From the IMG/VR virus record IMGVR_UViG_3300045988_088117, positions 1 through 43,392 of that record: a stretch of 43,392 nt of DNA; one strand, 5' to 3'. The position numbers and the translations under genes were made by a program. The notes below the pieces were generated by a model. The model made no database searches, had not been told where the DNA came from, and was given only the letters and a program-made list of their open reading frames with translations. The DNA comes from a virus. This document shows positions 20,512 through 42,551 of the stretch, piece by piece (position 1 is the stretch's first letter; the number at the start of each line of letters is the position of its first letter).

Positions 20512-20550
20512 CAAAAAAAGAACCCGGAAGGTTTTTCCCCTCCGGGTTCT
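20512..20550 (-). terminator. Intrinsic terminator ending the late/lysis operon
   Basis: On the minus strand: GAACCCGGAGGG-loop-CCTTCCGGGTTC followed by TTTTTTT. Confidence 0.7.
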
Positions 20551-20551
20551 G

Positions 20552-24911: not shown

Positions 24912-24912
24912 C

Positions 24913-25068
24913 TCAGCCCATGTTCAGCGCTTCGCGGATGGCTTCTAGGTCGTCGGTCGTCAGTGCGGGATAATCCGCCGCGATATCGGCAAAATCCTCG
25001 CCGTTGGCAATGCGAATTCTAAACGCACGGGTCATAATGCGCAGCTTCAAAGCATTCAAAGTTTTCAT
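24913..25068 (-). CDS. Small XkdX-like protein (51 aa)
   Basis: Hand-translated as MKTLNALKLRIMTRAFRIRIANGEDFADIAADYPALTTDDLEAIREALNMG. RBS is GGAGGA. Confidence 0.4.
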   Translation of the reverse strand: MKTLNALKLRIMTRAFRIRIANGEDFADIAADYPALTTDDLEAIREALNMG

Positions 25069-25073
25069 CTTTT

Positions 25074-25448
25074 TTATCCTCCAATCAAATCAGCCATCAT
25101 CAAAATCAGATCGTCGTTTGCGGATTCCAGCGCGTCCGTGCGCTGCTCCACGTTGTTCACGCGCTCCTCAGTCGTCAGCGGCGGCGCGGGCAATGCGTCA
25201 AAGTCCGCGTCCATCTCGGCCTGTGTCCGCTGCGCAACCAGCCCGTCCACGAGCTTGTAGCGGTACACGCCGCGCTCATCCGTGAGCGGCTTGAGCAGAT
25301 AGTTGTTCTGCGCGTGCCGGTATCGGTCGCCCTCGCCCTCGTCGATAGCCGTCCAGCTGTCGCCGCTCACAAACGCGTCGCTGTTGATCGCCGTCACGCG
25401 CCCAGCATCGTCGGTCTGCACCAGCACTTTGCAGCTCTCTGTGTCCAT
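25074..25448 (-). CDS. Hypothetical fibre-associated protein (124 aa)
   Basis: Listed ORF lying between the fibre genes. Confidence 0.55.
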   Translation of the reverse strand: MDTESCKVLVQTDDAGRVTAINSDAFVSGDSWTAIDEGEGDRYRHAQNNYLLKPLTDERGVYRYKLVDGLVAQRTQAEMDADFDALPAPPLTTEERVNNVEQRTDALESANDDLILMMADLIGG

Positions 25449-25460
25449 GTCATCCCTCCT

Positions 25461-26579
25461 TTACAGGTCGGCAGAAATGTCAATATCTCCCTGCGGCGTA
25501 ATCACGCCCGTGCAGATGCCCGTTACAGATACCGCGCACTTGACGGCGACGCGGTTTGCGTTTGTGTTATGCGCCGTAGCCGTCTCTGTCGTCGTTCCCT
25601 GCGCGCTACCCAGCGTGTAGTAAAACTTCCCCCCGCCTGTTACGGTCGGCGCGATCCGCATCGCCTGAGTCAGCGGAATAAACGCGTAAGCCACGCTGCC
25701 CGTGGCGTACCCGGCGAACGTCTGCGCATTGCCCTTAATCTTCCGATAATATCGCAAACATTCGGCCAGTTCCGCCGCGTATCCCTTCGGCACATACGGC
25801 GGCAGGGTCTCCGCCGTGTATTCGCCCTCGTAGAGCGCCGCCCAGCGGACGACCGCCGCCGTGCCGGTGCTGCCTGTGTCCGGCGAAATGTACACGTTCA
25901 CCACTTCGTCCCCGGTCAGGCCATCCGGCTTTGTCAGCTTCAGCACCAGCGTGCGCTCCGCCGCGTCGCCCTGAAAATACGCCGTGCCAAAATTCGTCGT
26001 GCCGCTGCCGATGTAGACAAACAGTCGGCACGGCACCGGAAAAACGCCGCGTACCGCAAACGTCATCACGTCGGCAAACCGTTTCGCCTCGATCCGCTGC
26101 TGAATGCCCGCCGTCCAGCTCGTCTTGTCCGACACGATTTTCAGCCCGTCTGCCGCCTGTGAAACCGTCGCGCCGTTTGTCCGCATCCAGCGATCCACAG
26201 CATACCCGGTCGCGCCGTGCGCCCCGTTCACGCCCGCCTGCGCAACCGGGTGGACAAAATCGCTGTTGTCCAGCAGGTTGTATACGCACGCGCCCGTGTC
26301 GCCCTTTGCCCCGGTTGCGCCCGTATCGCCCTGTGGCCCCTGCTCGCCCTTCGGCCCTTGCGCTCCCTGTGCCTGTACGCCCGTATCCAGTTCGCCGACA
26401 AACCAGTTGCCGTTCTCGCCGATGTACGGCGACGCGCCGGACGGCCCCGTCAGTTCCGCTTTCTGTTCCGGGGTCAGGTCGTCAAAGGTCAGGTTGAACG
26501 TCTCCTTCGCGCGTTCGATGTGAACGCGCATTGGCGCGCACTGTACGCAGCCCGTGCAGCATCTCTCGTTTTCCTTCAT
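25461..26579 (-). CDS. Tail fibre protein with a collagen-like segment (372 aa)
   Basis: ATG at 26579 follows an AAGGAGGG RBS. Contains GAQGPKGEQGPQGDTGATGAKGDTG. Confidence 0.7.
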   Translation of the reverse strand: MKENERCCTGCVQCAPMRVHIERAKETFNLTFDDLTPEQKAELTGPSGASPYIGENGNWFVGELDTGVQAQGAQGPKGEQGPQGDTGATGAKGDTGACVYNLLDNSDFVHPVAQAGVNGAHGATGYAVDRWMRTNGATVSQAADGLKIVSDKTSWTAGIQQRIEAKRFADVMTFAVRGVFPVPCRLFVYIGSGTTNFGTAYFQGDAAERTLVLKLTKPDGLTGDEVVNVYISPDTGSTGTAAVVRWAALYEGEYTAETLPPYVPKGYAAELAECLRYYRKIKGNAQTFAGYATGSVAYAFIPLTQAMRIAPTVTGGGKFYYTLGSAQGTTTETATAHNTNANRVAVKCAVSVTGICTGVITPQGDIDISADL

Positions 26580-26580
26580 T

Positions 26581-26946
26581 TCATCCCTCCTTGAGTGCAT
26601 CCACAATGTCCATTCTCCCCGGCGCGCACGGCGTAATCACCTCGCGGCAGGCCGTCACCTTTCCCTTGGCGTCCACCGCCGCTTCCAGGGCGAACCGAAT
26701 GTCCCAGACATAGCTTCCGGGTCTGAGCCGCGCCGTGTCCGCGCTGACAAACTCGATCTTCACGCGCCCATCCGCCTCCGGCACAATCGTCTTTTCCATC
26801 ACCGCGCGCCGCCCCGGCTTCTCCCGCACCGTGAAAACCGCCCGGTCTTCCGCCGTCGGCACATAGTCTCCTTCGTCCGGAATCACCGCCAGCAGCCCGG
26901 TGTCGCCCGCCGTCATCATGATCTGCATCCCGTTTACGCGAAACAC
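26581..26946 (-). CDS. Fibre N-terminal-domain paralog (121 aa)
   Basis: The GTG start has an AGGAGG RBS. MFRVNGMQIMMTAGDTGLLAVIP aligns with MFDARKGQITITRGDTGLLAIVP of the 597-aa fibre. Confidence 0.6.
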   Translation of the reverse strand: MFRVNGMQIMMTAGDTGLLAVIPDEGDYVPTAEDRAVFTVREKPGRRAVMEKTIVPEADGRVKIEFVSADTARLRPGSYVWDIRFALEAAVDAKGKVTACREVITPCAPGRMDIVDALKEG

Positions 26947-27800
26947 GCCTTCATCCTCCTTGTAAAGACCCGCACGCCGTCCCGAATCAGGCCGCCCGCT
27001 TTCACGCCGTTCAGCCAGATTTCCGAGAGCTGCACGCCGTTGAAAAATACCGGCAGCAGGTCGTCCTGTGTCCCGCGCAGAATCACAATGCCGCTTCCGC
27101 CCGCGGCCGCTTCGCCGCCCATGGTCCCTTCTTCATAACCGCCGCCCGGCCCGCCTGCGCCGCCGCCCGTGCTGACCTGTCCGGGGTGGCCGTAGCCGCC
27201 GTCCACGCCGTCCGTGCCGCCCGTGCCGCCGTTGCCTCCGCCGCCTGCGCCGCCCTTCGCGCCGCCGATCCAGGTTCCGCCGCCGCCGCCACCTCCGCCG
27301 CCGTAGGGGCCGAAACCCAGCACATAGCCGCCGTCGCCGCCTTCCGTTGGCGACGCACCGACCTCGCTGCCGCCCCGGCCGCCTGCACCCGTGCCCGCGC
27401 CCGGCGTGCCGCTGTCCTTCCAGCCCATTTTTCCCGCGCCTTTTCCGCCTGCCGCCGAAACGCCGAGGGCAGAGGTCGTCCCGCCGTCGTTGCCCGCCGC
27501 CCATGCGGCAGGCGCTGCGCCGCCCGCGCCAACCGTGACGGCGTAACCCTTTTTCGCCTCTATGGCGGCTTTGCCGCTGGCCAGATAGCCGCCGCCTCCG
27601 CCGCTTCCACCCGCCGGGTTTCCGGCCTGCCGAACGCAGGCGCTCGACCCGCCGCCGCCCACGCAGCCCACGTCTACGCCCGCTTTCGCATACTCAAAGG
27701 TCAGCGTGCCGGAGGTCGTCAGAAAGATGTACCAGTAGGTGTCGTCGCTTCCCGTGGAGCATTGCCCCGTGTAGCTGAATTTTGGAATCTTCTTCGCCAT
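26934..27800 (-). CDS. Glycine-rich tail/fibre-associated protein (288 aa)
   Basis: Long GGxGG tracts are flanked by ordinary N- and C-terminal segments. Confidence 0.6.
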   Translation of the reverse strand: MAKKIPKFSYTGQCSTGSDDTYWYIFLTTSGTLTFEYAKAGVDVGCVGGGGSSACVRQAGNPAGGSGGGGGYLASGKAAIEAKKGYAVTVGAGGAAPAAWAAGNDGGTTSALGVSAAGGKGAGKMGWKDSGTPGAGTGAGGRGGSEVGASPTEGGDGGYVLGFGPYGGGGGGGGGTWIGGAKGGAGGGGNGGTGGTDGVDGGYGHPGQVSTGGGAGGPGGGYEEGTMGGEAAAGGSGIVILRGTQDDLLPVFFNGVQLSEIWLNGVKAGGLIRDGVRVFTRRMKACFA

Positions 27801-27812
27801 TCTCTCACCCCG

Positions 27813-28601
27813 TCACGTCGTCGTGATGTAAAGCACGGTGCCGCTCAGGGTAAACGTCACCCCCGCCGGGCCTTTCGGCCCTTGCGGCCCGGTTGCGCCC
27901 GTCGCGCCTTTGTCGCCCTTGTCCCCTTTGTCCCCCTTTTCGCCCTTCGGCCCGCGCTCAAGTCCCAGCGTCAGCACCTTCTTTGTCCCGTCATCGGTCA
28001 GCGTCGCCGTGCTTCCGCTCCCGTAGTTGCGTGTCGCGGCCTGCACCGTCATCTTCGATAGGTGATCTGTCTGCGTGTTCGCCGCCTTCGTCGCCTCCAG
28101 CGCGTTCTCCGCCGCCGCGTTCGTCTCCGAAATCGCCGTGTTCATCTTCGAGAGCGTTAGGTTGATTTCCGCCACCAGCGCGTCCCACGCGTTCCCCTGG
28201 CTCGGCGTGACCTGAGACCCCGGCGCAGGGCGGCTGATCGGGGTGAAACTCCCCTCGTAGCAGGTCTTCGCCCGCACTTCATCCTCCGTCGCGCCGTAGC
28301 TCACATAGACAAAGACCTTGACCGCGCTGCTTCTGGTCAGATACGCGTCCGGAATCTCCGCTTCCCAGCAGCCCGTCTGCGCATCGAAAGCCGCCAGCCG
28401 CGTTTCCGTCTGGCTGTCCCCGATGTAGCCGTATTGCGCCTGCACCGTCACCGCGTCGCCGGCCAGAAATTCGTCCATTTCCGCCAATTCTTCCGGCGTG
28501 GGCAGCCCGTGCATCCGCAGCCGCTGACCCGTGTCGTATTGATAAATCCCGCCGATTGCCGCGCTCTTGTGCGTGGCCTGCTCAAAACTCGCTTCAATCA
28601 T
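27813..28601 (-). CDS. Tail/baseplate-type protein with a C-terminal collagen-like repeat (262 aa)
   Basis: RBS is TAAGGAGGG. Contains GPKGEKGDKGDKGDKGATGATGPQGPKGPAG. Confidence 0.65.
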   Translation of the reverse strand: MIEASFEQATHKSAAIGGIYQYDTGQRLRMHGLPTPEELAEMDEFLAGDAVTVQAQYGYIGDSQTETRLAAFDAQTGCWEAEIPDAYLTRSSAVKVFVYVSYGATEDEVRAKTCYEGSFTPISRPAPGSQVTPSQGNAWDALVAEINLTLSKMNTAISETNAAAENALEATKAANTQTDHLSKMTVQAATRNYGSGSTATLTDDGTKKVLTLGLERGPKGEKGDKGDKGDKGATGATGPQGPKGPAGVTFTLSGTVLYITTT

Positions 28602-28613: not shown

Positions 28614-31600
28614 TTACTTTTGCTTTTTGATGGTCGTGCCGCCGTTAAGTGTCTTGAGCATGCCCGTCAACAGGCTTTCACCAGTGACCCATTTTTCCTG
28701 ATATTTTGCAAACTCCTGATTGACCTCCAAAGCCAATTCGCACATTTTGGCTCGGATGCGGCTGCTTTTTTCGTATTTTTCCTCGTCCGTCAAATCCGTG
28801 CGTGCGTTGATGGCTTTGATCGTCTCATACCCTTCGCTGATGGTCTTTTTGGCTTCGTAGATCGTTCCGCCGCTGTGCGTCATATCGTAGGCGACGTCAT
28901 ACGCCTTTTGTGCCTGTCTCGGTGTCAGGTCTCCGCGCAGCATGTTCAGTTCGCGTCCGTTGTCTCCTGCCTTGACCACTGTTGTCAGGAATGTATTGGC
29001 GTTGTAGACCTCGCTGACAACATCATTGCTCTTGAGCGGGTCACTCGTCAGCATCTTTTGGGCGTATGCCGTAAATGCCGTCACAGGGCTGTCGCCGCCC
29101 AGTGTCGGAATGGCAACCTGTCCCGCGAATCCTGTGTATTGCTGTGCCATATATTGCAGCATCATCGGGCTGATCTCCGCGCCAGACAACGAATGAATAA
29201 AGCGAGACAATCTGATGAACGCGTCCGGCGTGTCCTCCGTATACTGCGTTGTCGCGTCCCAGCTCTCCATGTAGCTGGGCACGATGCGGCTGCCGTACCA
29301 GTTTTTGTTGGTCTGCGTCGCAATTATCGGGTCAAAAATCGTGCTTCCGACAGGATTAAGGCTATCTACCATCGTCGCAAACGTCGTCGCCATGTCGATG
29401 GTGAATTCGTCCCCCTTGCCGGATTCCAGCGCGTTGAACACCATCGCGTGCGTAAAGTAGTCAAGGGGATTCTGGTCAATGGGGATACGGATGAGCGGCG
29501 CGTCTCCGAATACGTCCGGCGCAAAATTGGGAATGAAGAAATGCCCATTTTTCAGGTCGTCGCTCAAAAACGCAAATTGTTCTTTGTCCTCGTCGTCAAG
29601 GAATTTGGCTCTCAGTCCGGCGCATACCGCCGTAAACAGTCCTGTGTTGACAACAGAGCGCATGACGCGACTGACCACTTGCCCGCGCTCCTGCGCTGTA
29701 AACTGCCGTCCGGTGCGGTATACGCCTTGCAAACTCGCATTCATAAACGGAACGACGTTGCGGATGCCGCGTCCGATGCTGCTTGCGCCCTTTCTGCCAA
29801 AATCGACCGTGCTTTCTTGGGAGGCGCGGTAGGCTTCCGCTCGTCCCTCAGCCGTCGTCAGATCGTGCTTACCATAGAGATATTCGGCTACGCGGGTCGT
29901 TTTCTCGATAAACTCGTTCGGCTTTTGCAGGGTTGCGTATTCCCAGAGTTTTTTTCCTGCCCATTTCGCTGTACCCGCAAGCGTACTCGTATCATAGTTT
30001 TTGAAGTATTCCATGTTCAGCGGCGTCCATTTGCCGTCACTTGTGTGGAATAGCCTTTCCGTTGTATACAACGTGTGCCGCAGGTCTTTAATGCCCTTTT
30101 GGGTTGTATCAATGCGCCCGTCGTTTCCGCCCAGCGCGTCATAGCCCTTTACCGCCTCATCTCCGCTTGCGATTCTGTATGCGGTCATCAGCCATTTCGC
30201 CGCGCCGTCCAGATAACTCTTTGCCCATGTGCCGTAGTTGACACCGTTCTGGAAGTCTCTCGCGAAGTTGCGCAAACCAAACACCGAGTTCGCGCCCGTC
30301 GTCAGGAACGTCATGGCGCGTGTGCCGCGTCCGATAAAGTCCGTAACCTGCTTTCCTCCGTCCGGCGTGTTCGCCATCATCCTGAAAAACGGCTCGTTGA
30401 GGATTTCGATTTTGCTCGTGCTTCCGTCGTCATTCCATACCGTGATGACGTTCTGCCCGTCCGCGCTGCTCTCATCGGCATTGGCACGAATCAAATCACC
30501 GAATTCCCCGTTCAGCGGGTCAAATTGCACCGTCTTATCCGGCTTTGCATCGGTTTCGATTTTGTGCGCGATTTCACCGAGTCCCTCGTGGGTGTCCAAC
30601 AGCATTTCAAGCTTTTGCGCCGCCTGATTAGTCATGTCCTGCCGCACAATCCGCCCGACCATCTCAAGCATGCTGTCCATCGGGTTCAGGATCAGCTCGG
30701 TGCTTCCCTTCGCCTGACGAACGGAGAACCCGGCTTTTTTTGCCTGCTCAAGCGAAAAATCGCCGTCCTTGATGCGATATGTAGGCGCATAATAAGGGTA
30801 GATGCTTTGAAAATATTTCCATCCCGCTTCATCCAGTCTGCCGCTTGATACAAGATACTCGTGCGTAAAGGCGTTCCACGTTTTGAGCAGACTATCAACC
30901 GTCTTTGCGTATTCCGGATGCGTTTTATCCTTTTCCGCGATAAACGCACGCCGTTCCGCGTTTGACGCAAACCCGTCGTCAAATACAGGCTTGTTTTGCT
31001 TGTCCCTGTCGATACTGTCCTTGACAAGCCAATACAGCTCAAAATCCTTGTAATCCTTGCCTTTCAGCCCGCCGTCCTTGATTGCGTCCGCAAAGCTGCC
31101 GCCGATAATCGTGCTGCCGTCTCTTGCTACAAGCCCGTCGCCGATGATATACAGCGCACGCTCGTCCGCTTTGTTCCGCAGCAGCACCGCGTCTCGCAGG
31201 TTCTCGGAAAACGCCACGGTGCTTTCACCAGTCTCCGCCCTGATTTTCGCATTGATCAGTTCCGCCGGGGCGGACGAATCGACAAACTCATAGGTGAGCC
31301 GCATCATCTTTTCCTTGAGCGTTTCCTTTTCCTTCGCGTTTGTGCGGTCTACGACCATGCTTTGCAGCCGATCCTGTGTGCTCTGATTCAGCCATTTGCG
31401 GATGTCGTTTTTGTAAAGGTCGAACGCCTTGTCATATCCGCTCTGCCGCATCTGGTAATCAAACGTGTCGGTAAACGCATCACCCGCGAATCGTCTGCCC
31501 TGCTCGTCGCTCAGCACACGCCGCCAGACGTATTCCGCCATCGCCTCTCCCGCCATCTCCGCATCCGTGTAGTTTTTCGCCCACGATGCGTTTTCGGCTT

Positions 31601-34600
31601 TCAGCGCGGCGACCATTTCCGGCGTGCCGGCAAGTCCGAGCTTTTCGCTCAGGGCGTGACCGATCTCATGGATGACCACATCCACCCGCGACGCGCTCCT
31701 TGCGTCAACGCCCGCGTAACCCACACGGCTTTGGTAATATCCGCTCGCCCCATCCGGCACACGGCTGTCTCCCAGCTTGATTCCAACGCCAAGAGCTTTG
31801 GCGAATCGCTTTGTCGCGGAGTAGATGTTTTCGCCGTAATTGCTTCCGGTCGGCTTGCTCTTCCCTTCCGCCTGCTCAACCTCAACCCCGCGGTACGTCC
31901 GTTTCTGTTCGCCTTCTGCGCTCTTGCCGACATCGCCCTCCATGACGCCCTTTGCCGCCCGGCGGATCTGCGCCCGATCCTGAGGTTTCTCAACCGGGGT
32001 TCTCATGTCGCGGTAGGCCTTTCGCCTCGCCATCATCGCATTCATGATGTCTTCTTCCGGATGCAGGCTGGCTTCGTTCATGTACCCGCCGCTTTGCTGT
32101 GCCAGATCGACATAAAAATGTCCGTCAAGCGGCGTCGCGCCGCGCGCGTTCTCGGTCAGGTTCATGGCGTATGCCCGGTTGACCTGCGGAAGCGACTTAA
32201 ACCCGGTCATATGGAGGATTTCACTCTTCTGAGCGGGATTGACATAGACCTTTTTCGTTCTCAAATCGTTGGCGACAGGGGTCAGCGCGTCATATGTCCT
32301 TTGAGCGTTCACCTTGTCCATGTTTTGGGTCAGATAGGCGTTCATATCAGCCGCCGCGTTGGCCTCGTCTCTGGCTTTGGCGTTATCCGTTTCAAGGCTC
32401 AGCTCTCCAAGCTGATTCATAACGTTGTCGATTTCAGATGCAAACACGTTCAGTGCGTCGTCGCTCAATCCAGAAAGACCCTCGCTTGCCTGTTCCTGCA
32501 CGGCATCGATCCGCTTTTGACTGACGGGCTTTCCGTCTTTCAACGCCTGCGCAAGTTCCTGTGCCGCCCGTCCGGCCTTGACAATCTCGTCCATCTGCCG
32601 AATCTCCGGCGCATACTGCTCCTCAAACGTCGTGTCCGCCACAACCTGTCCGGGTCTTCCGCCGTCCGCAGCGCGCGCTTCTTCCGTCTGCACGGTTGCG
32701 TCGTTCATATCATGTGTTCCGGTGAGCTGAACCTCCGCTTCCGGATTCAGATAGTTCTGCGTTTGCTGGCTCGTCTTCTGCTGTTCATTCCGTCCGGTTT
32801 CGCCCGGATAGAGTTCCTCTTCCAGCGCCCAGTCGCTTCCGCTTTGCTGATAAATCCTTTCTTTGGCCTGCGCCAGTTTGATCTGGTTTTCAATCGCGGC
32901 CTTTGTGTCCGCGTCAAGCCCCAGTTCTTCGCTTTGGCTGAGCGCCTGTTCAAGAGAGATGCGTGTCGCTTTGGCTTCTTCAAGCCCCGGCTCTGCAATC
33001 TCGTTTCTCTTTCTTCTCAGCTCGTGCAGTCTCTCGTCGATGCCCTGCATAACGCTTTCGTCATATCCCTGCGCTTCCGCTTCGGCATAGCTGGCGTTCA
33101 TCGTTTTGATTTCGGCGTCAATGTCGGCGATTTGCGTCATCGTCTCCATTTCCGCCACCCATCTGTCCGTGTTTTGCTGGTTTTCTTCCTGACTGATCTG
33201 CGCGCCGCGCGTTTTCGCTTCGTTCAGTCCTTTTTCATAGGCCTCCCTGGCCGCCTGCCGGTGTTTTTCCTCTGTCTCTCTGTATTCGTTCGCCGTTTTC
33301 TGGTTTTCGCTCATGCGCACGCGCGCCGCCTGCATCTCTTTGATCTTTTCCAAATCTCCGTTCATGACGGCATCTGCATACGATTCAAACTGCGTCTTAG
33401 CCGCGTCCGCCGCCTGCTGAGCGGCTTCCGCTTTCGTCTGCGCGGTTTGCTGCATGTCGGTCTGTTTGTTTCCTTCTTCAAAGTTCTGCGCGCCCACGCC
33501 TGCCATGGCCGCCGCAACCGTATTCTGCGCGTCCTGCGCCTGCTGTGCGGCCTCGTTGACGGCCTGCGCAACCTCCGGTTTTTCAAGTTCCTGCGCGAGG
33601 TTTTCCGTGACTTTCGCGATGTTCTCAACCGTCACGTCCGCCTCTCCGTTCAGCATCTTTTCGCTGATCGTGATGCAGGGCGGCGTATATCCCGGCAATT
33701 TGCGCCGAATGGCAAGCCCCATATGGCCGGACAGGCTGAAAATAATGCTGCCCGCCGCGCCGCCGACAAAGCTGTTCGCGCCGTCGGCCAGCATTTGCGC
33801 AGGGTCAAGGCTCGTCAGTCCGCCGAGAACGTCGGAAAACTGCGGTTTCTGTCCGTTGGTGATCTTCTGCGCCACCGGATACATGGCCGCGTTGTACAAG
33901 TCGGTCAGAAGGCTTTCTTCAACCTCTTCCTTGCCTTCGCTCACGGCCGTTTTCGCAAGGTCTTTGGCGTAAAGTCTGGCCTTTCCCCAAAATGTCGCCA
34001 CTTTGGAAGCGTCCAGCCCGGCCAGCTCCATTTCAAGCAGACTGCGCCCGCCATACAGATTTCCCTCGTTGACGGCCTCGCCTTTGTTGACCACCGTGCT
34101 GATGACGGCGGGTCCAACCGCCAGCGCCGCAGAAACCTGTTTGCTCAGGCCGTTTTTCCGATTTTCTTCAAAGCTTTCATTCCATGTCGTCGTACCGTAA
34201 GCCAGCGCGGACGAAGCCAGCCCGCCAGCGCCCAGCGCGCCTGCCGCTCCGGCTGTCGCCATGCCGGCCGCGCTGTATCCGGCGCTCCACGCATAATTGA
34301 AAGCTTTCTGTTCAAACGCGTTGCCCAGCGCCGCGAAGTCCTGGGCGCTCCGCTGAATGTTATCCAGGGCGCTTGTGAAAGCGCGATATCCGTTTCCCAG
34401 CCAGCCCGCGTCAATCTTGTAGCCCACATCGTAAATGTCTTTTGCCCGTGCGATATCGGCCTTGAGCGCCGCGCTCTGCTCTTCGCTCAAAAGGCCGCTG
34501 TCCGCGTATTGCGTGAGCTGTTCACGGTAGATGGCGCGCCCGTTCACGCCGTATTCGACGTTGTAGCTGTTCATGATTTCGTTGCGGTTCGCTTCATAGG

Positions 34601-37373
34601 TCGCCACATCCACCGCGTTGTACACAGCGCTTGCAAAGCTGTCCACATAGGAGACTGCGCCGCCGCCAACGCCCGCGCCGACTGCGGGGAGAAGCCCGAT
34701 CGTCGCGCCGTCGTCCTGCGCAAGCCCTTCCTGCGCGACGGGGTTGTTCAGAAATTCGCTGCCCTGTCTCACCATGCGGCTGTACGCCATGTCTTCCAGC
34801 TGGTTAAGGCTTTCAATGCCGCACTTGCTCAGGTATTCCTCTGTGGTCATGCCCAGCCCGTTGGCCACATCTGCATATTCGTTCAGCAGTTCGTTGGCCT
34901 GATAGGTCACTTCCCGCCGGAACAGGTCTCTTTTCTGCCCTTCCAACCCCTCGGATGCAGGCGCGCTGTCCTGATTCCAATATTCGCCTTCCTCCTGAAA
35001 GTAGGCGGTATTGAGCTGTGTCCGCAGCGTTTGATAGGTCGTGTCCATCCGCTTGGCGCTGCTGCCGTAGATTTTGGCATCGGCGACGCGCTGCATGTCC
35101 TCTTCGGTCGCGCTTCCGGCCGTCACGCGCTGAACGCTTTCTTTCAGCGCTTCTTCGTCAGCCTGCTTTTGAGCGTCTACTTCGCTTTTCTGCTGCCGAA
35201 TCACGGTTTGCTGCGCGTCTTCAATATTATGCATCACGGCTTTTGCATCGTCGTGCGTGCTGATGTAAACGTTGTATGGGTTCTTCCCGCTCGGAATGCT
35301 GACTTCGCCGTTTTCAATCCATGCATCCGCGTCCTGCATCACCTGAATCAGAGCCAGATAACCAGCCCCTGTGGTTTCGTCATCCAGCATGCCGCTTTTC
35401 AGAATGCCGACTTCTTTTTCAAGCCAGCTTCCGATTTCCGTTGGAATTGTTCCCGGCATGCTCAGCGTTTTGGCCTGTTTTTGAAGTGCTGAAGAAGCGA
35501 TATCCGGTAGTGAGGATGTAGCCCCCTCCCGATTCAGCAGCATCCGGCCTGCATTGCTGTCAAGATAGGGAGAAAGCATCTCCTTTTCGTCGTCCGTCAG
35601 CGCTTCGCCTTTGAGATAAAGCGTCATCGCTTCGCCGGGCGTCTGTACAGATTCCCTTTCGCTCGCCTTCGCTTCCACCTGCGCGGCGGTCTGGTCTTCC
35701 ACGCTGGGTTCCTGTGCCTGCTTGCTGACCCACTGTTCAAAGCTCATCCCTCCCTGAGAGACGATCTTCTCTTCCGGGGTCATCTCCTTTTGCCAAACAG
35801 GGCCTTGAACCTCTTTGGGCGCTTCGTCGTAATAGGCCGCCTGCGCTTCATGCAGCGCTTCGCCGTATTCGTCAAGCCACTGCTTCTGTTCCTCCAACTC
35901 CTTCGGCGTGCCCTGCTTTGAGGCCAGCACCAGATGATCCGGGTCGGCCTCTGCGATGCTCTTTCCGCCCTTCACCGCCTCGGCCACGCGGTCATAATAC
36001 GCGTCCAGCTCTTCCGGGGTCAGCACGCTGCCGTCTTCCCGAATCGGCGTCATCTGCGCCATGAAGCCGTCTTCCGGCGCGCCGTATCCGGTCGTCAGCA
36101 CGGTGGAAACGCCGCCCGGCTCGGTGTAGTCGCCCCAGCCCGCCGCCTTCATCGTTTCATAGCTCACCTGCGGGCGATGGGTCAGATCGACGTTTCCGCC
36201 GTTTTCTTCGCCGCCGAACTGCGCCTGCATGGCCTCGCCGCGCGTCTGACTGTCCTGCTGCTGCGTGTTCTCGTCCGAAACCGCAGGGCTTCCGCCGTTC
36301 TTCTTTTCGTTCTTCCTCTGCTCGTCGCCGAAGAAAAACGCTGCAATGCTGGATGTCGGCTTGCCTTCCGACTTGTCGATTTGCACCTGCTGATTATAAG
36401 CGGCAATATCGTCGTCCGTCGGCGCTTTGCGGCCTGTCGTCTTTTCATAAGCGTCATCCAGCGCCGCCCGCAGATAGCGCTTCTCACGCGTGGAATAAGT
36501 GTTGCCGTCATCCGGGTCCTGGATTTCGCTTACCTTTTCCAAATATGCCAGCACGTTGTCCTCGTCGTGCCCGCTCTCTGCGTAAAAGGCTTTGTCGTAT
36601 TCCTTTACGGCGTCGTTGTAGCTGTCCTCGTCGAAGCCCGCGCCGCCCAAAAATGTATTGGCGGTGTCCTCGTCAAACGTCATGCCGTAAAAACGGTTTC
36701 CGGGTGTCTGCGTCAGCGTATACAGCGCCTTGACTTTTTCTTTTCGGCTCGTGCTGTCCGGGTCTGTACGAATGGATTGAATGACCATCGGCAGGCTTGC
36801 GCCGCGCAGGTCAACGTCGTTTCCGTCCGCGTCCATAAACAGCCCGGAGGAAATCGCCTGCATGGCGGAATTGACCGTGGCCTTGTTCTTTCCCGTCTCG
36901 CTGACGGGCTGCGCAAACAGGCGCGTGCCCAGCAGATCTTCCGCGCCGGAGAGCACCGTTTCGCTGTCCTGTTTGCTGTACTTCGCCCAGTCCTTGAGAA
37001 ATTCCGCTTTCGTCGTCTCGTCGTGCAGCGTGGAGGCAAAATAGGCCGCCTGTTCGTTGCTCTTGATCGAAGAGAAATCGACGCTGATATCGTTGTAGCC
37101 CGTATCCGCTTTCGGGTTGCCCGGTGCCATGCCGTCCCGCGCCGCCATTTCCGCGTCATAGTCCGCGATGATCTGCGCGTCCGTCTTTTTCGCCGTCTGC
37201 TCAAACGGGTTCGTCGGGTGCTCGGCTACAACGTGGTGCTTCGTCGCCTGTATCGCCGCCGCCGTGTTTTTGGCGTAGTCGCGCCCTTCGACGACGGCGG
37301 CTTCCTGCTCGCTCATCGCCTGCCGCGCCTGTTCTTCCTCTTCTCTCTTTCTGCCCAATCCCAATCGTGCCAT
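28614..37373 (-). CDS. Giant virion-associated multidomain protein (2,919 aa) with a zincin HExxH motif; putative ejection or polyvalent protein
   Basis: Single uninterrupted ORF with a CAGGAGGG RBS. HEIGH is encoded at 31670..31656 (about aa 1902). A Q/A/E-rich coiled-coil lies in the middle. Contains a GGNVDLTHRP motif. Confidence 0.8.
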   Translation of the reverse strand: MARLGLGRKREEEEQARQAMSEQEAAVVEGRDYAKNTAAAIQATKHHVVAEHPTNPFEQTAKKTDAQIIADYDAEMAARDGMAPGNPKADTGYNDISVDFSSIKSNEQAAYFASTLHDETTKAEFLKDWAKYSKQDSETVLSGAEDLLGTRLFAQPVSETGKNKATVNSAMQAISSGLFMDADGNDVDLRGASLPMVIQSIRTDPDSTSRKEKVKALYTLTQTPGNRFYGMTFDEDTANTFLGGAGFDEDSYNDAVKEYDKAFYAESGHDEDNVLAYLEKVSEIQDPDDGNTYSTREKRYLRAALDDAYEKTTGRKAPTDDDIAAYNQQVQIDKSEGKPTSSIAAFFFGDEQRKNEKKNGGSPAVSDENTQQQDSQTRGEAMQAQFGGEENGGNVDLTHRPQVSYETMKAAGWGDYTEPGGVSTVLTTGYGAPEDGFMAQMTPIREDGSVLTPEELDAYYDRVAEAVKGGKSIAEADPDHLVLASKQGTPKELEEQKQWLDEYGEALHEAQAAYYDEAPKEVQGPVWQKEMTPEEKIVSQGGMSFEQWVSKQAQEPSVEDQTAAQVEAKASERESVQTPGEAMTLYLKGEALTDDEKEMLSPYLDSNAGRMLLNREGATSSLPDIASSALQKQAKTLSMPGTIPTEIGSWLEKEVGILKSGMLDDETTGAGYLALIQVMQDADAWIENGEVSIPSGKNPYNVYISTHDDAKAVMHNIEDAQQTVIRQQKSEVDAQKQADEEALKESVQRVTAGSATEEDMQRVADAKIYGSSAKRMDTTYQTLRTQLNTAYFQEEGEYWNQDSAPASEGLEGQKRDLFRREVTYQANELLNEYADVANGLGMTTEEYLSKCGIESLNQLEDMAYSRMVRQGSEFLNNPVAQEGLAQDDGATIGLLPAVGAGVGGGAVSYVDSFASAVYNAVDVATYEANRNEIMNSYNVEYGVNGRAIYREQLTQYADSGLLSEEQSAALKADIARAKDIYDVGYKIDAGWLGNGYRAFTSALDNIQRSAQDFAALGNAFEQKAFNYAWSAGYSAAGMATAGAAGALGAGGLASSALAYGTTTWNESFEENRKNGLSKQVSAALAVGPAVISTVVNKGEAVNEGNLYGGRSLLEMELAGLDASKVATFWGKARLYAKDLAKTAVSEGKEEVEESLLTDLYNAAMYPVAQKITNGQKPQFSDVLGGLTSLDPAQMLADGANSFVGGAAGSIIFSLSGHMGLAIRRKLPGYTPPCITISEKMLNGEADVTVENIAKVTENLAQELEKPEVAQAVNEAAQQAQDAQNTVAAAMAGVGAQNFEEGNKQTDMQQTAQTKAEAAQQAADAAKTQFESYADAVMNGDLEKIKEMQAARVRMSENQKTANEYRETEEKHRQAAREAYEKGLNEAKTRGAQISQEENQQNTDRWVAEMETMTQIADIDAEIKTMNASYAEAEAQGYDESVMQGIDERLHELRRKRNEIAEPGLEEAKATRISLEQALSQSEELGLDADTKAAIENQIKLAQAKERIYQQSGSDWALEEELYPGETGRNEQQKTSQQTQNYLNPEAEVQLTGTHDMNDATVQTEEARAADGGRPGQVVADTTFEEQYAPEIRQMDEIVKAGRAAQELAQALKDGKPVSQKRIDAVQEQASEGLSGLSDDALNVFASEIDNVMNQLGELSLETDNAKARDEANAAADMNAYLTQNMDKVNAQRTYDALTPVANDLRTKKVYVNPAQKSEILHMTGFKSLPQVNRAYAMNLTENARGATPLDGHFYVDLAQQSGGYMNEASLHPEEDIMNAMMARRKAYRDMRTPVEKPQDRAQIRRAAKGVMEGDVGKSAEGEQKRTYRGVEVEQAEGKSKPTGSNYGENIYSATKRFAKALGVGIKLGDSRVPDGASGYYQSRVGYAGVDARSASRVDVVIHEIGHALSEKLGLAGTPEMVAALKAENASWAKNYTDAEMAGEAMAEYVWRRVLSDEQGRRFAGDAFTDTFDYQMRQSGYDKAFDLYKNDIRKWLNQSTQDRLQSMVVDRTNAKEKETLKEKMMRLTYEFVDSSAPAELINAKIRAETGESTVAFSENLRDAVLLRNKADERALYIIGDGLVARDGSTIIGGSFADAIKDGGLKGKDYKDFELYWLVKDSIDRDKQNKPVFDDGFASNAERRAFIAEKDKTHPEYAKTVDSLLKTWNAFTHEYLVSSGRLDEAGWKYFQSIYPYYAPTYRIKDGDFSLEQAKKAGFSVRQAKGSTELILNPMDSMLEMVGRIVRQDMTNQAAQKLEMLLDTHEGLGEIAHKIETDAKPDKTVQFDPLNGEFGDLIRANADESSADGQNVITVWNDDGSTSKIEILNEPFFRMMANTPDGGKQVTDFIGRGTRAMTFLTTGANSVFGLRNFARDFQNGVNYGTWAKSYLDGAAKWLMTAYRIASGDEAVKGYDALGGNDGRIDTTQKGIKDLRHTLYTTERLFHTSDGKWTPLNMEYFKNYDTSTLAGTAKWAGKKLWEYATLQKPNEFIEKTTRVAEYLYGKHDLTTAEGRAEAYRASQESTVDFGRKGASSIGRGIRNVVPFMNASLQGVYRTGRQFTAQERGQVVSRVMRSVVNTGLFTAVCAGLRAKFLDDEDKEQFAFLSDDLKNGHFFIPNFAPDVFGDAPLIRIPIDQNPLDYFTHAMVFNALESGKGDEFTIDMATTFATMVDSLNPVGSTIFDPIIATQTNKNWYGSRIVPSYMESWDATTQYTEDTPDAFIRLSRFIHSLSGAEISPMMLQYMAQQYTGFAGQVAIPTLGGDSPVTAFTAYAQKMLTSDPLKSNDVVSEVYNANTFLTTVVKAGDNGRELNMLRGDLTPRQAQKAYDVAYDMTHSGGTIYEAKKTISEGYETIKAINARTDLTDEEKYEKSSRIRAKMCELALEVNQEFAKYQEKWVTGESLLTGMLKTLNGGTTIKKQK

Positions 37374-37391
37374 ATTCTGCCCTCCTGCGCT

Positions 37392-38192
37392 TTATCGCAT
37401 CTGACCGTATGTTTTGGATCTGCCGCCGCCCCTGTTGGTATAGGTGACGCTCGTCGAGTGGCTCGACCCCTCGGTGTGCTGTTCGCCCGTCGTGTCGGTC
37501 GTGCCGCTGGTCTGCTGGCTGCCCGTCGTCTGCTGGCCCATCGCCGCAGAAATCGCCGTCAGGTAGTTGCTGTTCCATTCCTTGCGCTGGTTTTCTTTCA
37601 GTTCCTGCACCTTCGCCGCCAGCTGACTGGCGAAATCCGTATTCAATCGTCCCTGCGTCTGGCTGTTCTGCTGCGCCGCCTGCGTGATCTGCTGCTGAAT
37701 CTGCCCGCTCTGCCGCGTGTTTTCGTCTGTCAGCTGCTGCACCGCCTTGGCCAGCGCGTCGCCCTGGTTGGCCAGCGTTTGCAGCGTGTAGCTGCTTCTG
37801 CCCATGCCGCGACCGAGCGCCGCCGTTTCGACGTTCGCGGCGCTCTTTCTGTACGCCGTGTTCTGCTCGTCGATAGCGCGCGTCAGGCTGGCCGCAAGGT
37901 TTTCAAGTTCCTGCTCCTTGCTCAGCTTCGTGGTTTCATAGTTCTGCCGGCTTTCCTCCAGCGCCGCGTTGAGCTGCGGCCGCAGCAGGTTTTCCGCAAA
38001 CTGGTTGATTTCCTCGTCGGTCATGTTGCGCACCAGACCGCCGAGAATCTGGTTCATCAGGTCGCTGTCCAGCAGCTTTTTGGTTGTGCTCTGGCTGTCG
38101 CTCCTGCTCTGGCTTTGGCTGTGCTCTTTGCTTTTGCTGTCCGATTTCGAGCTTGTATCCGTCTCCGTGATCGAAGATACCCTCAGCGCCAT
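37392..38192 (-). CDS. Hypothetical virion protein (266 aa), Ser/Gln-rich
   Basis: Listed ORF in the structural operon. Confidence 0.6.
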   Translation of the reverse strand: MALRVSSITETDTSSKSDSKSKEHSQSQSRSDSQSTTKKLLDSDLMNQILGGLVRNMTDEEINQFAENLLRPQLNAALEESRQNYETTKLSKEQELENLAASLTRAIDEQNTAYRKSAANVETAALGRGMGRSSYTLQTLANQGDALAKAVQQLTDENTRQSGQIQQQITQAAQQNSQTQGRLNTDFASQLAAKVQELKENQRKEWNSNYLTAISAAMGQQTTGSQQTSGTTDTTGEQHTEGSSHSTSVTYTNRGGGRSKTYGQMR

Positions 38193-38196
38193 GTTC

Positions 38197-38373
38197 TCAC
38201 TTCCCTTCCAGCGCGTCTAAACGCTTTTTGATCTTTTCGATTTCCGCGTCCTTGAGCCTGTCCGCGTTCCAGCTGGCCGTACAGAAATCGCGCAGAAACA
38301 GCGCGATGTTCTTCACGTACCCCGCCAGCGTCCCGCCTGTCTCCTGCGGAACCCTCGGCTGCTTAAATGCCAT
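38197..38373 (-). CDS. Small structural-module protein (58 aa)
   Basis: Hand-translated as MAFKQPRVPQETGGTLAGYVKNIALFLRDF.... RBS is GAGGTG. Tightly packed between neighbouring genes. Confidence 0.45.
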   Translation of the reverse strand: MAFKQPRVPQETGGTLAGYVKNIALFLRDFCTASWNADRLKDAEIEKIKKRLDALEGK

Positions 38374-38375
38374 GT

Positions 38376-39863
38376 TTACACCTCATCCAGCGAATATTCC
38401 ACCTGCACCCCGCCATAGATCCGCCATCCCGCTGCCTTGGCGTGGCTGTGCAGTTTCAGCTTCATCCGCACGCCGCTCACCTGAATCTTCACCCGGTAAT
38501 CCGTCCGCCGCTTTTTGAGCAGCACGACGCGCGTCTTCTCCCGCCTTTCAGTGAGGATCGTCACCTCAAGCGGCACGTCGTCCGCGTCCGCGTCGGCGGT
38601 CAGGCGCAGCACAAAGTCCCGCTTCATGTAGGCCTTGCCCAGATCGAGCCACGGCGTTTCCCACAGGCTTTCCATCGGCACGCCCAGATAGCTCCCGCTG
38701 TCCGGGTCGCCGTAGGAGAGCACCTCGTACGGCGCGTCGGCCTGCGTGAAATACACCTTCCCGCCGACGGCGAAAAAGTCCTTGACGCGCATGCCCTTGC
38801 GAATCATAAACGTCCCGCGCTCCGTGTCGTACTCGATCACCGTGTTGTTTTCGCTCAGCACGTCGCCTTCTTTTTCCTTCACGCACAGCGCCAGATAGTA
38901 GATGTGCTCGTTCACGCAGCTTCTCGCCGTGCCGTCCATCCCGTCCATCCGCATGCGCATCGTCTCATACAGCGCGTCGCGGCTGAGCATCCGCAGCGTG
39001 CTTCCGTCGTAAAGGCCGATGCCGCTCTGCGTCAGGTAAAACATGCTCGTCCTGTCCGTCTGAATGCTCTTTTCCTCCACCGGGCCGTCCGTGCCGTAGG
39101 CCTCCGTGATCGTAAAACTGCCGGGGTCCGTACCGCGGATCTCAAAGATCGTCCGCTGCTTCACCGCCAGCAGATACCCGCCGAAGGGTTCCAGCGAAAT
39201 GAACTTGTCCCCGTCCCACGTCGGCTGATTGATCACCCCGCCGCCGATCTCCGGCGTTTCCGGCACGTCCGTCCATGTGAACGGGTCGTAGGGGCGCGAA
39301 TAGAAGATGCTGTCCGGGTATCCCTCCGCGCCCACGCCCCAAATGCGCTCCGCGTGCCGCCCTAGCTTGGCGAATTTTACGTTTTCGTAGTTCTCGCCGA
39401 GCGTCAGCGTCTTGCGCTCCACCCGAAGGTCGCTTCCGTAGACCGCGATCATCCCGTCCTTTTCGTTGGAAAGAATCAGAATGTCCACCGTCGCGCCGCC
39501 CTCCACGGCCTCGTAGGTCACAAACGACCATACGTCGCTCTTGTATCCCTCGCTGCGCTTCACCCAGCCTTCCGTTCCCATCGTGTAGGTGTAAATCGCG
39601 CCGCCTGCCGCCGCCACATATACGTCCGCGTCGTCCGGCCGGGTTCTGCGGTAAAACCGCGCCAGCGTCTCGATGGGCGCGCCCAGCGACGGAAACGCGC
39701 GGCTCGTGCCGTAGCTGGAAGCCAAAAGCCCCCGCTCCGTGCGGATGTTCTCCGCCCGGTACGCGTAGTCCGTGTTGATGTTCGTGTCGCCCGCCGCCTG
39801 ATAAACCCCTTTCGGCGTGGGAATCGTGAATCGCCCCTGATAGTCGCTGTCTGAAATGCTCAT
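38376..39863 (-). CDS. Large structural protein (495 aa), possibly a tail tubular or nozzle-type protein
   Basis: ATG at 39863 overlaps the upstream TGA (ATGA junction). Follows the adaptor-like gene. Function inferred from position only. Confidence 0.45.
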   Translation of the reverse strand: MSISDSDYQGRFTIPTPKGVYQAAGDTNINTDYAYRAENIRTERGLLASSYGTSRAFPSLGAPIETLARFYRRTRPDDADVYVAAAGGAIYTYTMGTEGWVKRSEGYKSDVWSFVTYEAVEGGATVDILILSNEKDGMIAVYGSDLRVERKTLTLGENYENVKFAKLGRHAERIWGVGAEGYPDSIFYSRPYDPFTWTDVPETPEIGGGVINQPTWDGDKFISLEPFGGYLLAVKQRTIFEIRGTDPGSFTITEAYGTDGPVEEKSIQTDRTSMFYLTQSGIGLYDGSTLRMLSRDALYETMRMRMDGMDGTARSCVNEHIYYLALCVKEKEGDVLSENNTVIEYDTERGTFMIRKGMRVKDFFAVGGKVYFTQADAPYEVLSYGDPDSGSYLGVPMESLWETPWLDLGKAYMKRDFVLRLTADADADDVPLEVTILTERREKTRVVLLKKRRTDYRVKIQVSGVRMKLKLHSHAKAAGWRIYGGVQVEYSLDEV

Positions 39864-40432
39864 CTGCAATACCTCGCGTCCGTCACCTCATACAGGTTCC
39901 TGAACCTCGTCACGCTCCCCATGCCTTCCGGCCGAATCCGCTGCATCGCCTGGTAAAAACTGGTCTGATAGAACTGCGCCCGGCTCTGCTTGGCCAGATT
40001 GCCGCTGGACAGGTGCCGGTAGCAGATGTAGTCCGCCAGCGCCGCATGCGCGTATTCCGGCAGCTGCGGTTCGTCATTTCCGTCTTCCAGCGGGTAAAAC
40101 GCCACCTCGCAGACCGCCCGCAGCGTCTGCCCCGCCAGATCGTCCCGCCAGACGTGAAAGCAGCGCCCGCATGGGTCAAGGTCAAAGCCAATGTCAAACC
40201 CGTTTTTGTCCCGCAGTTCGATGACCCGCACGACCGTCAGCCCCGGCACGGGCGCGTTTCCTTCCTCGTCCACCTCGGTGTAAAAAATCCGCCTCGGTTT
40301 CAGGTATTCGCGAACCGCGATGTCGTAGCCCATGTTCGCATACACCCTGAAACTCTCTTCGTATTCGCTCACGTCCTCCGCGTCTTCGTCCAGCTGGCGA
40401 AGCGCCTGCGCGATGATCTGTGAAAGCGTCAT
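39860..40432 (-). CDS. Putative head-tail adaptor/connector (190 aa)
   Basis: The N-terminus TLSQIIAQALRQLDEDAEDVSEYEE resembles gp6-like connector N-termini (from memory). Lies after the capsid gene. Confidence 0.4.
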   Translation of the reverse strand: MTLSQIIAQALRQLDEDAEDVSEYEESFRVYANMGYDIAVREYLKPRRIFYTEVDEEGNAPVPGLTVVRVIELRDKNGFDIGFDLDPCGRCFHVWRDDLAGQTLRAVCEVAFYPLEDGNDEPQLPEYAHAALADYICYRHLSSGNLAKQSRAQFYQTSFYQAMQRIRPEGMGSVTRFRNLYEVTDARYCR

Positions 40433-40447
40433 GGGCTGCGCACCTCC

Positions 40448-40723
40448 TTAAATCACTTTGCTGTCATGCAGCACATTGAAAAGCGGTTTGGGCATGTCCA
40501 CCGTCTCGCCGCGCATGAAATAAAATTTCGATCCGTTCAGGCCGACAAAAACCACGTCGTCGCCGCTTCCCGGAATGAGCGGAATCATGGTCTTGACGGT
40601 CTCGTAGGTCTTGCAACCCGCCGCCGCCATTCGGCGTTTCATGTCGGTTTTGGTCGCTTCGCATTTTTCCCTCAAGACGGAACTCGCCATCTTCATGGAT
40701 TTAGTCGTATTCATGATTGCCAT
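40448..40723 (-). CDS. Hypothetical head-module protein (91 aa)
   Basis: RBS is GAAAGGAGAA. Lies directly after the capsid-gene terminator. Confidence 0.55.
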   Translation of the reverse strand: MAIMNTTKSMKMASSVLREKCEATKTDMKRRMAAAGCKTYETVKTMIPLIPGSGDDVVFVGLNGSKFYFMRGETVDMPKPLFNVLHDSKVI

Positions 40724-40749
40724 TTTGTTGTTCTCCTTTCAAAATCAAG

Positions 40750-40783
40750 AAAAAAAGCGGACGGGCTTTCTGTCCCGCCCGCG
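40750..40783 (-). terminator. Intrinsic terminator after the major capsid gene
   Basis: On the minus strand: GCGGGCGGG-loop-CCCGTCCGC followed by TTTTTTT. Confidence 0.65.
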
Positions 40784-40787
40784 TAAA

Positions 40788-41738: not shown

Positions 41739-41750
41739 AAAGAATCCTCC

Positions 41751-42521
41751 TTAGATTCTGACTTGCTTGCCCTCCATCATCATTTTCTGCGCCCTGTCAG
41801 AAAAGCGGGCAAACTCTTCGTCCGTCATGTTTTCAATCGGGTTTTCGCCCGTCACGCGGCCGCTTCCGGCCGTTCTGGCCGTCGGCACGCCGCGCTTGTG
41901 GGTTGCGCCGCCGGATTCCGCTTCGCCGCTGACGCGCTGCAAATAAGCCTTTGCCGCCCTGCGGATGCTCACGCCGCTGTTGACCTGACGCGCGACTTCG
42001 GCGTCGCTGCAAAAAGCCTGCATTTCACCAGTTGTCCATCCGTCTTCAATCAACATGTTCAGCTGCTCGGTAATCCGCGCTTTGCGCTCGTCAATCTGCG
42101 ATGCCGCCGCCTTTTCCTGCGCTTCGACAATCTTCTGCGCGGCCTTGGGGCTGATGTCGCTGTCGGCGCTCGAAATCTTCTGCGCGCGGTATGCCCGCAG
42201 CGCATTTGCGATTTCCTCGTCGTTCAGATCGCCCGCAGCGCCTCTCACCCTTGCGGAAAAATCCAGATCCTTCTGGAAACCGCGCTTCTGGTTGGCCAGT
42301 GCGGACGCAATCCGTCTGCCGAATTTGTCCTTGTTGTCTTCCGGTTCTCCCTGCTGCTGATCCTTCGTTTCGGGGCCGCCGTCGCCCTCATGTTCGGCCG
42401 TTTCGTTCGTTTCCGATTCTGCCGCAGTCAGCGTTTCAACCAGTTCGTCAACCGTCACTTCCTGCGCGTCGTCCGCAGGCATATCGTTCATCATTTCGAC
42501 CGCATTTTCCAATTCGTTCAT
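41751..42521 (-). CDS. Scaffolding protein
   Basis: 256 aa, acidic and helical. Lies between the portal and major capsid genes. Confidence 0.55.
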   Translation of the reverse strand: MNELENAVEMMNDMPADDAQEVTVDELVETLTAAESETNETAEHEGDGGPETKDQQQGEPEDNKDKFGRRIASALANQKRGFQKDLDFSARVRGAAGDLNDEEIANALRAYRAQKISSADSDISPKAAQKIVEAQEKAAASQIDERKARITEQLNMLIEDGWTTGEMQAFCSDAEVARQVNSGVSIRRAAKAYLQRVSGEAESGGATHKRGVPTARTAGSGRVTGENPIENMTDEEFARFSDRAQKMMMEGKQVRI

Positions 42522-42551
42522 GTGTTCTCCTTATCGCGCCTTTCCGCGTTG

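Follow-up and report, generated by a model that had tools for sequence, protein, structure and literature searches.

The 43,392-nt virus record IMGVR_UViG_3300045988_088117, which was analysed over its whole length and is called the window here, carries on its minus strand one giant gene. The gene's product of 2,919 amino acids (aa) is probably a polyvalent or ejection protein packaged in the virion of a temperate phage of podovirus-like type with a spore-forming Bacillota host. The open reading frame (ORF) is uninterrupted over 8,760 of the 43,273 bp of the genome (20.2%). An initial annotation of the sequence had seen in it an internal or ejected, polyvalent-type protein with a zincin rather than a tape measure, and that reading is upheld by a Pfam LPD38 domain, by homology to virion proteins of cultured phages (E = 1e-53 to 1e-60) and by the position of the gene. 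Consistent with the virion module in which the annotation had placed it, adaptor and structural genes lie upstream and tail-fibre genes downstream. Together these data support an LPD38-type giant polyvalent/ejection protein of podoviruses, neither DarB-like nor a tape measure. In many podoviruses a giant LPD38 protein accounts for one fifth of the genome; such proteins occur in virions, and one of them is needed for infection. The class is already recognised and the window protein is a new addition to it; a chain of 300 kDa would have to be stored and expelled.

LPD38 is the sole curated domain that Pfam matches in the 2,919 aa, and it lies in the C-terminal region in which the initial annotation had recognised no motif. 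The domain is uncharacterised and restricted to phage-type polyvalent proteins, for which it counts as a diagnostic domain (Iyer et al. 2017). A further characteristic of polyvalent proteins, a large multidomain polypeptide encoded with virion genes, is found as well. As to disparate activities, the zincin is the one recognisable putative enzyme here, and sister proteins carry ART-PolyVal, MuF_C or LPD3. LPD38 stands near the end of a C-terminal module of ~1,050 aa, in which the zincin comes first and is followed by ~900 mostly helical residues. A HMMER search with query aa 1720-2919 against 1.84 billion representative proteins gave 1,706 clusters at E <= 1e-3, of which 266 reached E <= 1e-30, with matches nearly always spanning query aa ~1850-2907. 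Of 117 full-length giants (2,103-5,056 aa), 109 have the end of the module no more than 150 aa from their C-terminus and 114 have the zincin part in it, other sequence of 895-3,866 aa standing ahead of the module. A hidden Markov model (HMM) built from the full-length alignment was silent on the cultured giants, even on their module regions, and was disregarded as a filter/weighting artefact.

The AlphaFold model of aa 1840-2919 has a predicted local distance difference test score (pLDDT) of 70 and a predicted template modelling score (pTM) of 0.59. A Foldseek search of the module against BFVD returned 63 matches, the best at 3e-29, with template modelling (TM) scores of 0.5-0.6 over ~1,000 columns. 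The matches are C-terminal pieces of giant viral proteins, the other parts of which carry methylase, RelA/SpoT or lytic transglycosylase annotations; in the PDB, by sequence and by fold, nothing beyond the zincin matches the module. Conservation is highest in a core upstream of the Pfam LPD38 boundaries, where T2359, N2369, D2373, E2490, R2494, E2497, F2525 and G2529 are 97-100% conserved over 126 clusters, as is Q2745 further on. For the core region (aa 2330-2600) ten diverse members gave no Pfam match, and there was no match in the PDB. The hydrophobic helix that follows has an equivalent, more hydrophobic one ~330-350 aa before the C-terminus in all cultured homologues and in three diverse metagenomic representatives checked. 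The conserved core could be enzyme-like or channel-like, joined to a single conserved membrane-type helix. The LPD38 Pfam model covers ~160 aa of the ~900 aa between zincin and C-terminus, and it is conceivable, though doubtful, that this whole region is a single, undescribed machine for genome or protein delivery.

A family HMM extends the module to cultured phages, each match being the C-terminal ~900 aa of a giant protein: the 2,807-aa protein of phi24B (E = 6.5e-60), Burkholderia JC1 gp69 (E = 1.5e-57), Bacillus phage Pony gp20 (E = 8.9e-55), Vibrio phage 252E42.2 p0009 (E = 8e-54) and the 'DarB-like' protein of Ralstonia AhaGv (E = 6e-53). Short-tailed phages have the module whether their hosts are Gram-negative or Gram-positive, and the gut-phage family of the window protein places it in phages of probable spore-forming gut Bacillota, whose envelope is a thick wall with one membrane and no periplasm. 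Mass spectrometry places JC1 gp69 in the virion. In the Stx phage phi24B, gp47 makes up an abundant part of the virion proteome but is not visible by cryo-electron microscopy, and the authors of that study propose an encapsidated ejection protein forming a conduit (bioRxiv 10.64898/2026.04.10.717836). By homology to these two, the window protein would likewise be packaged in the virion. phi24B gp47 (2,807-2,811 aa) resembles it in ending a podovirus structural module, in LPD38, in HExxH motifs and in length. Unlike the window protein, it has an unrelated N-terminal 1,900 aa with LPD5 and LPD1, HExxH motifs further upstream of the module and a Gram-negative host, and its presence in virions is observed, that of the window protein predicted. 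In the Bcep22-like giants JC1 gp69 (4,515 aa) and the AhaGv protein (4,497 aa) the module is at the extreme C-terminus and the gene takes up ~20% of a podovirus genome. The 'DarB-like' name of JC1 gp69 and the AhaGv protein rests on N-terminal methylase and helicase regions. Pfam at E <= 1 finds neither the adenine methyltransferase nor the SF2 helicase (with LPD36) in the window protein, so that the label 'DarB-like antirestriction' is not transferable, and resemblance is limited to the C-terminal module.

Other giants are informative by structure or by neighbourhood. E. coli phage PTXU04 gp25 (2,198 aa), annotated with LPD38 only, is a top structural match of the module (E = 2.6e-26, TM 0.55); it is shorter and from a phage of a Gram-negative host, and its likeness comes from the structure match. 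Knock-down of this LPD38-only giant strongly reduces plating. Pony, with its Gram-positive host, is the nearest cultured relative by capsid (major capsid protein 34% identical), and its gp20 (1,679 aa) is likewise the last structural gene ahead of the lysis genes. It differs in being half as long, in lacking HExxH and in being preceded by a separate SLT/NlpC-P60 virion lysin, which the window phage does not have. N4 gp50, the virion RNA polymerase (vRNAP), is comparable as a giant that is packaged and injected, with glycine-rich hydrophobic segments in its N-terminal injection domain and an HExxH zincin in its C-terminal encapsidation region. Homology to N4 gp50 was not supported (no HMM match, hhalign probability 0.3%, no LPD38 in N4), and an N4-like virion RNA polymerase was rejected, Pfam having found no RNA polymerase domains in the window protein. 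T7 gp14/15/16 and P22 gp7/16/20 are likewise encoded between adaptor/nozzle and fibre genes and have the same proposed role. These T7 and P22 ejection proteins are separate and smaller, and PDB sequence and profile searches with the window protein gave no significant match.

The module opens with the HExxH domain. HEIGH (aa 1902-1906), noted at about aa 1902 by the initial annotation, is the sole HExxH of the whole protein and lies within VDVVIHEIGHALSEK (aa 1897-1911). H1902, E1903, H1906 and E1947 are invariant over 38 family sequences of both C-half types, and E1943 is nearly so; E1947, 41 residues past H1906, would serve as the third zinc ligand. Of 126 representative clusters, 101 keep HExxH intact and 103 conserve the Glu. 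The AlphaFold model made with a deeper alignment has, in module numbering, a helix (11-22), three strands (25-28, 39-42, 47-50), the HExxH helix (58-73) and the Glu helix (98-115), which is the order of the zincin core topology. The best PDB fold match is the IrrE-like metalloprotease-fold domain of MtPrpR (6CZ6), with a probability of 0.94 but a Foldseek E of 0.34. Sub-threshold matches overlapping HExxH, in Pfam (E = 0.06-0.1) and to a PHROG peptidase (E = 0.01), are all to metallopeptidase families, and in relatives the equivalent domain scores above the threshold of Pfam DUF6782, which is a family of putative metallopeptidases. With weak statistics on one side and invariant residues and topology on the other, the domain is therefore called a probable, divergent zincin and a putative peptidase, as first proposed. 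Zincins have been proposed to process polyvalent proteins; N4 vRNAP, also zincin-bearing, is packaged uncleaved, and its zincin-bearing region is needed for encapsidation (Iyer et al. 2017).

Relatives of the whole protein were collected by a word-index search and mapped onto the query, giving 120 proteins of 2,693-3,125 aa, many on 43-45-kb contigs. The N-terminal conserved domain is 58-92% identical within the LPD38-type family and ~27-40% in a P0070-like subgroup. Further along, a scaffold (aa 570-1500) combines three conserved Gly/Ala-rich hydrophobic segments with long helices, is 26-34% identical to distant relatives and is Gly/Ala-rich and hydrophobic over aa 1000-1240; the N4 vRNAP injection domain and other giants also carry similar hydrophobic segments. 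Within aa 1300-1500 the content of A+E+Q+K rises up to 55% and that of Pro+Gly falls to 4-5%. The Q/A/E-rich coiled coil that had been placed at aa 1150-1500 stands as a helical, A/E/Q/K-rich stretch, with its span corrected to ~aa 1240-1660; since its heptad periodicity is unremarkable, a helical region is supported and a canonical coiled coil is not demonstrated. The small alpha/beta domain that comes next is conserved even among relatives with the other C-terminal half, and a fold search with the AlphaFold model of aa 1660-2160 (pLDDT 65) gave no match.

The C-terminal halves of these relatives are exchanged. The C-terminal ~1,000 aa of the window protein are found among the 60 closest of the 120 only; the remaining 60 have a single HExxH at the equivalent site and then an unrelated half, from which the LPD38 module is absent. 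In P0061 this alternative half contains MuF_C (aa 1859-1966) and ART-PolyVal (aa 2020-2160), and in P0079 LPD3. Junctions between differently related N- and C-halves, i.e. recombination breakpoints, fall at ~aa 1500-1680. A comparison of lengths among relatives, proposed in the initial annotation, shows length to be tightly held across the two unrelated C-half groups, with standard deviations of 59 and 79 aa. When the LPD38 module was tested for remote homology to the alternative halves by profile-profile alignment, the only match was ~41 columns around HExxH (E = 8e-4, probability 24%). The alternative halves of P0061 and P0070 have a zincin at the start and a strongly hydrophobic helix ~300-370 aa before the C-terminus. 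As replaceable halves of similar size, each with these two features, the LPD38 module and the alternative half may be analogous solutions of the same task. The lineage offers a natural dissection, a common N-scaffold being joined at the zincin to two unrelated C-halves at fixed length and with a recombining cassette, and such swaps of modules suit it well for testing what the class does. Separately, contig L007 (ENA contig_2747, 750 kb) has at its end a near-identical copy of the giant gene that is broken into pieces of 235, 138, 330, 833 and 1,250 aa, which could reflect assembly frameshifts or a decaying prophage.

GGNVDLTHRP, seen near aa 390 in the initial annotation, is at aa 392-401 and belongs to an optional GNVDLTxRP cassette carried by 36 of the 120 relatives. 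Compared with the copy in prophage L011 (10001-19378) the cassette has 94-100% nucleotide identity, including third codon positions, against 40-48% in the flanks, and the segment encoding aa 1-100 is likewise 94-100% identical to the same prophage gene. With the L012 copy (3551-12652) identity is 80-84%, the flanks being at ~46-55%. Because these identities are far above those of the flanks, the cassette appears recently recombined, and such a mosaic within a single gene indicates recent recombination at the nucleotide level. No Pfam or PHROG family matches the cassette, and a word-index protein search with it as query returned fragments only. Distant cassettes (GNIDLxxRP...STV...PTV...LH) are at aa 133, 305, 419, 627 and 1499 of other large phage ORFs; in podophage CVT22 the cassette is the C-terminus of a 720-aa protein adjoining a 1,573-aa protein. 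A shorter cassette (GNIDLxNRP...DGSISTVRS...LIPTVSDDG...AYAExLH), which corresponds to no curated family, is seen at differing places in ORFs that are 720 to >2,300 aa long on the unrelated viral contigs L018, L020, L022, L023, L025, L026 and L004 (CVT22).

As an ejection protein, the giant would be made late from the structural operon, and a few copies would be packed inside the capsid during assembly. On opening of the tail it would exit via the portal channel, before or with the DNA, and help to carry the DNA across wall and membrane. The C-module's conserved hydrophobic helix and the glycine-rich hydrophobic segments in the N-half may insert into the host membrane, and the long helices may prolong the short tail through the cell wall, by analogy with delivery by T7 gp14-16, P22 gp7/16/20 and the N-terminal domain of N4 vRNAP. 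Self-cleavage by the zincin, at or near the junction of the halves, may release separately acting pieces of the polyprotein.

Several results weigh against an ejection protein. The N-terminal 1,850 aa match nothing among known ejection proteins, Pfam, PHROG or the PDB; the AlphaFold models are moderate (pLDDT 65 and 70); and no peptidoglycan hydrolase domain was found in the giant protein. The zincin fold statistics are weak in both Foldseek (E = 0.34) and Pfam (E = 0.06-0.1), Pony gp20 and Vibrio p0009 have no HExxH, and ~10% of clusters have lost the catalytic residues. The main counter-evidence comes from the sister phages that share the N-half and do without the LPD38 module, so that the module is dispensable in the lineage and may be cargo rather than machinery. 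This keeps alive the view, after the model of Iyer et al. and of DarB type, that the giant carries exchangeable anti-defence or host-takeover effectors, injected with the DNA and without a structural role in delivery, the module and the cassette being swappable weapons. Such a carrier is compatible with the exchange of the C-half for ART-PolyVal plus MuF_C (RNase-like) or LPD3, with the recent recombination of the cassette, with the enzyme-like look of the strictly conserved polar residues at aa 2357-2550, and with fusion of homologues elsewhere to methylase, RelA/SpoT and lytic transglycosylase domains. However, PTXU04 needs its LPD38-only giant to infect a laboratory host efficiently, a dependence that would be unusual if the giant were an accessory anti-defence factor; the module is kept at the same position from Gram-negative through Gram-positive podophages; and apart from the zincin no effector enzyme is recognisable in the window protein. 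An effector carrier is unlikely, and a packaged ejection protein is preferred.

Self-processing by the zincin has its own competitor, in which the domain acts on a host substrate, either cell-wall peptides or a defence or regulatory protein in the manner of ImmA/IrrE-type site-specific proteases. The IrrE-like domain as best structural match agrees with this, N4 vRNAP and ArdC-type proteins that have zincins of this kind are delivered without processing, and the gp47 peptidase of phi24B has been suggested to help its conduit through peptidoglycan (bioRxiv 10.64898/2026.04.10.717836). Yet no known HExxH+E peptidoglycan peptidase family is matched, the zincin is dispensable in several homologues, and its constant place at the border of variable N-parts and conserved module fits processing; a host substrate is quite improbable. 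A tape measure or another external tail part (central fibre, needle) would account for the great length, the long helices, the glycine-rich hydrophobic segments and the tight constraint on length in the lineage. The initial annotation had found no tail tube, chaperone pair or obvious tape measure in the genome, and would have given up its reading for a canonical tape measure with tail tube genes; none was found, tube, sheath, chaperone and tape-measure families giving zero matches among the ~30 larger ORFs scanned, with a few small ORFs outside the scan. Moreover, the portal is P22-like, the adaptor SU10-like and the capsid related to that of Bacillus podophage Pony, and phi24B gp47, a homologue, does not appear in the tail as resolved, so that an external tail part is highly improbable and the ejection protein remains the preferred reading.

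Table 1. Features of the giant gene and its neighbours in the window (aa numbering is that of the giant protein).
Feature	Position	Strand	Evidence
Giant LPD38-type polyvalent (putative ejection) protein, 2,919 aa	28614..37373	-	ORF, Pfam, homologues
Shine-Dalgarno AGGAGGG, 6 nt ahead of ATG	37380..37386	-	sequence inspection
N-terminal conserved domain, aa 1-375	36249..37373	-	mapping of relatives; no family match
Optional GNVDLTxRP cassette, aa 385-520	35814..36221	-	relatives, nucleotide comparison
Lineage-specific scaffold, aa 570-1240; hydrophobic segments aa 889-910, 1076-1098, 1202-1222	33654..35666	-	composition, relatives
A/E/Q/K-rich, Pro/Gly-poor helical region, aa 1241-1660	32394..33653	-	composition
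Small alpha/beta domain, aa 1679-1789, pLDDT >90	32007..32339	-	AlphaFold model; no fold match
Zincin-like domain, aa 1849-2010, pLDDT 73-94	31344..31829	-	AlphaFold, conservation
HEIGH, aa 1902-1906	31656..31670	-	motif, conservation
EAMAE, aa 1943-1947; E1947 candidate third zinc ligand	31533..31547	-	conservation
Conserved C-terminal module, mostly helical, aa 2025-2907	28653..31301	-	HMM, AlphaFold, homologues
Most conserved module core, aa 2357-2550	29724..30305	-	alignment of 126 clusters
Hydrophobic helix, aa 2574-2592, then acidic DDEDKE motif	29598..29654	-	composition, homologues
LPD38 (PF18857), aa 2603-2759	29097..29567	-	Pfam, E = 8e-18, 65.6 bits against a cut-off of 27
Upstream virion genes: adaptor, 497-aa structural protein, 58-aa ORF, 266-aa Q/S/T-rich protein	37392..40432	-	family searches, relatives
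Collagen-like and glycine-rich tail-fibre genes, downstream of giant gene	23118..28601	-	family searches

The single uninterrupted ORF of the initial annotation, one fifth of the genome, is borne out by agreement of the ATG, the Shine-Dalgarno sequence and the starts of homologues; the ATG is confirmed by the M-A-R beginning that the homologues share. Long plus-strand ORFs at 30996-35492 and 35934-38231 overlap the DNA of the giant gene and are taken as shadows, because homologues and a Pfam match exist for the minus-strand product only. The gene lies 18 nt from the end of the upstream gene and 12 nt from the start of the next gene downstream, and these short gaps assign it to a tight late operon. 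The protein has at least six separable regions, and no internal repeats were found in it. Searches of PHROGs and of the PDB (sequence and profile) with the whole protein gave no match; split into pieces, it matched phrog_9854 (unknown function) and, weakly, a peptidase, and nothing more in PHROGs.

The first and last 119 bases of the window are identical (1-119 and 43274-43392), forming an exact terminal direct repeat, and the portal gene is continuous across the junction once a single 119-bp copy is deleted; the window is therefore a closed, complete phage genome. On the minus strand the head module starts with small and large terminase, followed by the P22-like portal, a 256-aa protein, possibly a scaffold, and the major capsid protein. 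After the capsid gene come the adaptor (190 aa, weak SU10_adaptor match), the 497-aa structural protein, the 58-aa ORF, the 266-aa Q/S/T-rich protein (weak DUF7934 match) and the giant gene; relatives have the identical upstream set of four genes ahead of theirs. Four collagen-like/glycine-rich fibre genes, an SH3_3 endolysin and a Phage_holin_4_1 holin lie 3' of the giant gene. An integrase, an anti-repressor, Sak, SSB and a resolvase elsewhere in the genome mark the phage as temperate. The capsid protein is nearest to those of human-faecal phage contigs (46%) and then of Bacillus megaterium podophages of the Pony/Page group (34%). A related prophage on a 549-kb contig adjoins SpoIIP and sigma factor genes, for which reason the host is probably a spore-forming member of the Bacillota.

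A few minor observations concern the remaining genome. The order of the head module is rearranged among relatives: in L011 (1866-9982) it is capsid, portal, terminase, adaptor, unlike the order of terminase, portal, capsid, adaptor in the window (37392-43392 plus 1-2971). The integrase is flanked by ORFs of 470 aa (19535-20947, +) and 141 aa (19031-19456, +) that have no Pfam or PHROG match and could be lysogeny-associated cargo; their strand call is uncertain, as base skew favours minus. A DUF4406 gene (E = 3e-7) at 21281-21601 (-) is flanked by the endolysin and the holin. Within the fibre genes, the stretch 25000-28600 has a guanine-plus-cytosine content of 62-67%, compared with ~55% elsewhere, a rise that probably reflects composition (Gly and Pro codons) rather than foreign origin.

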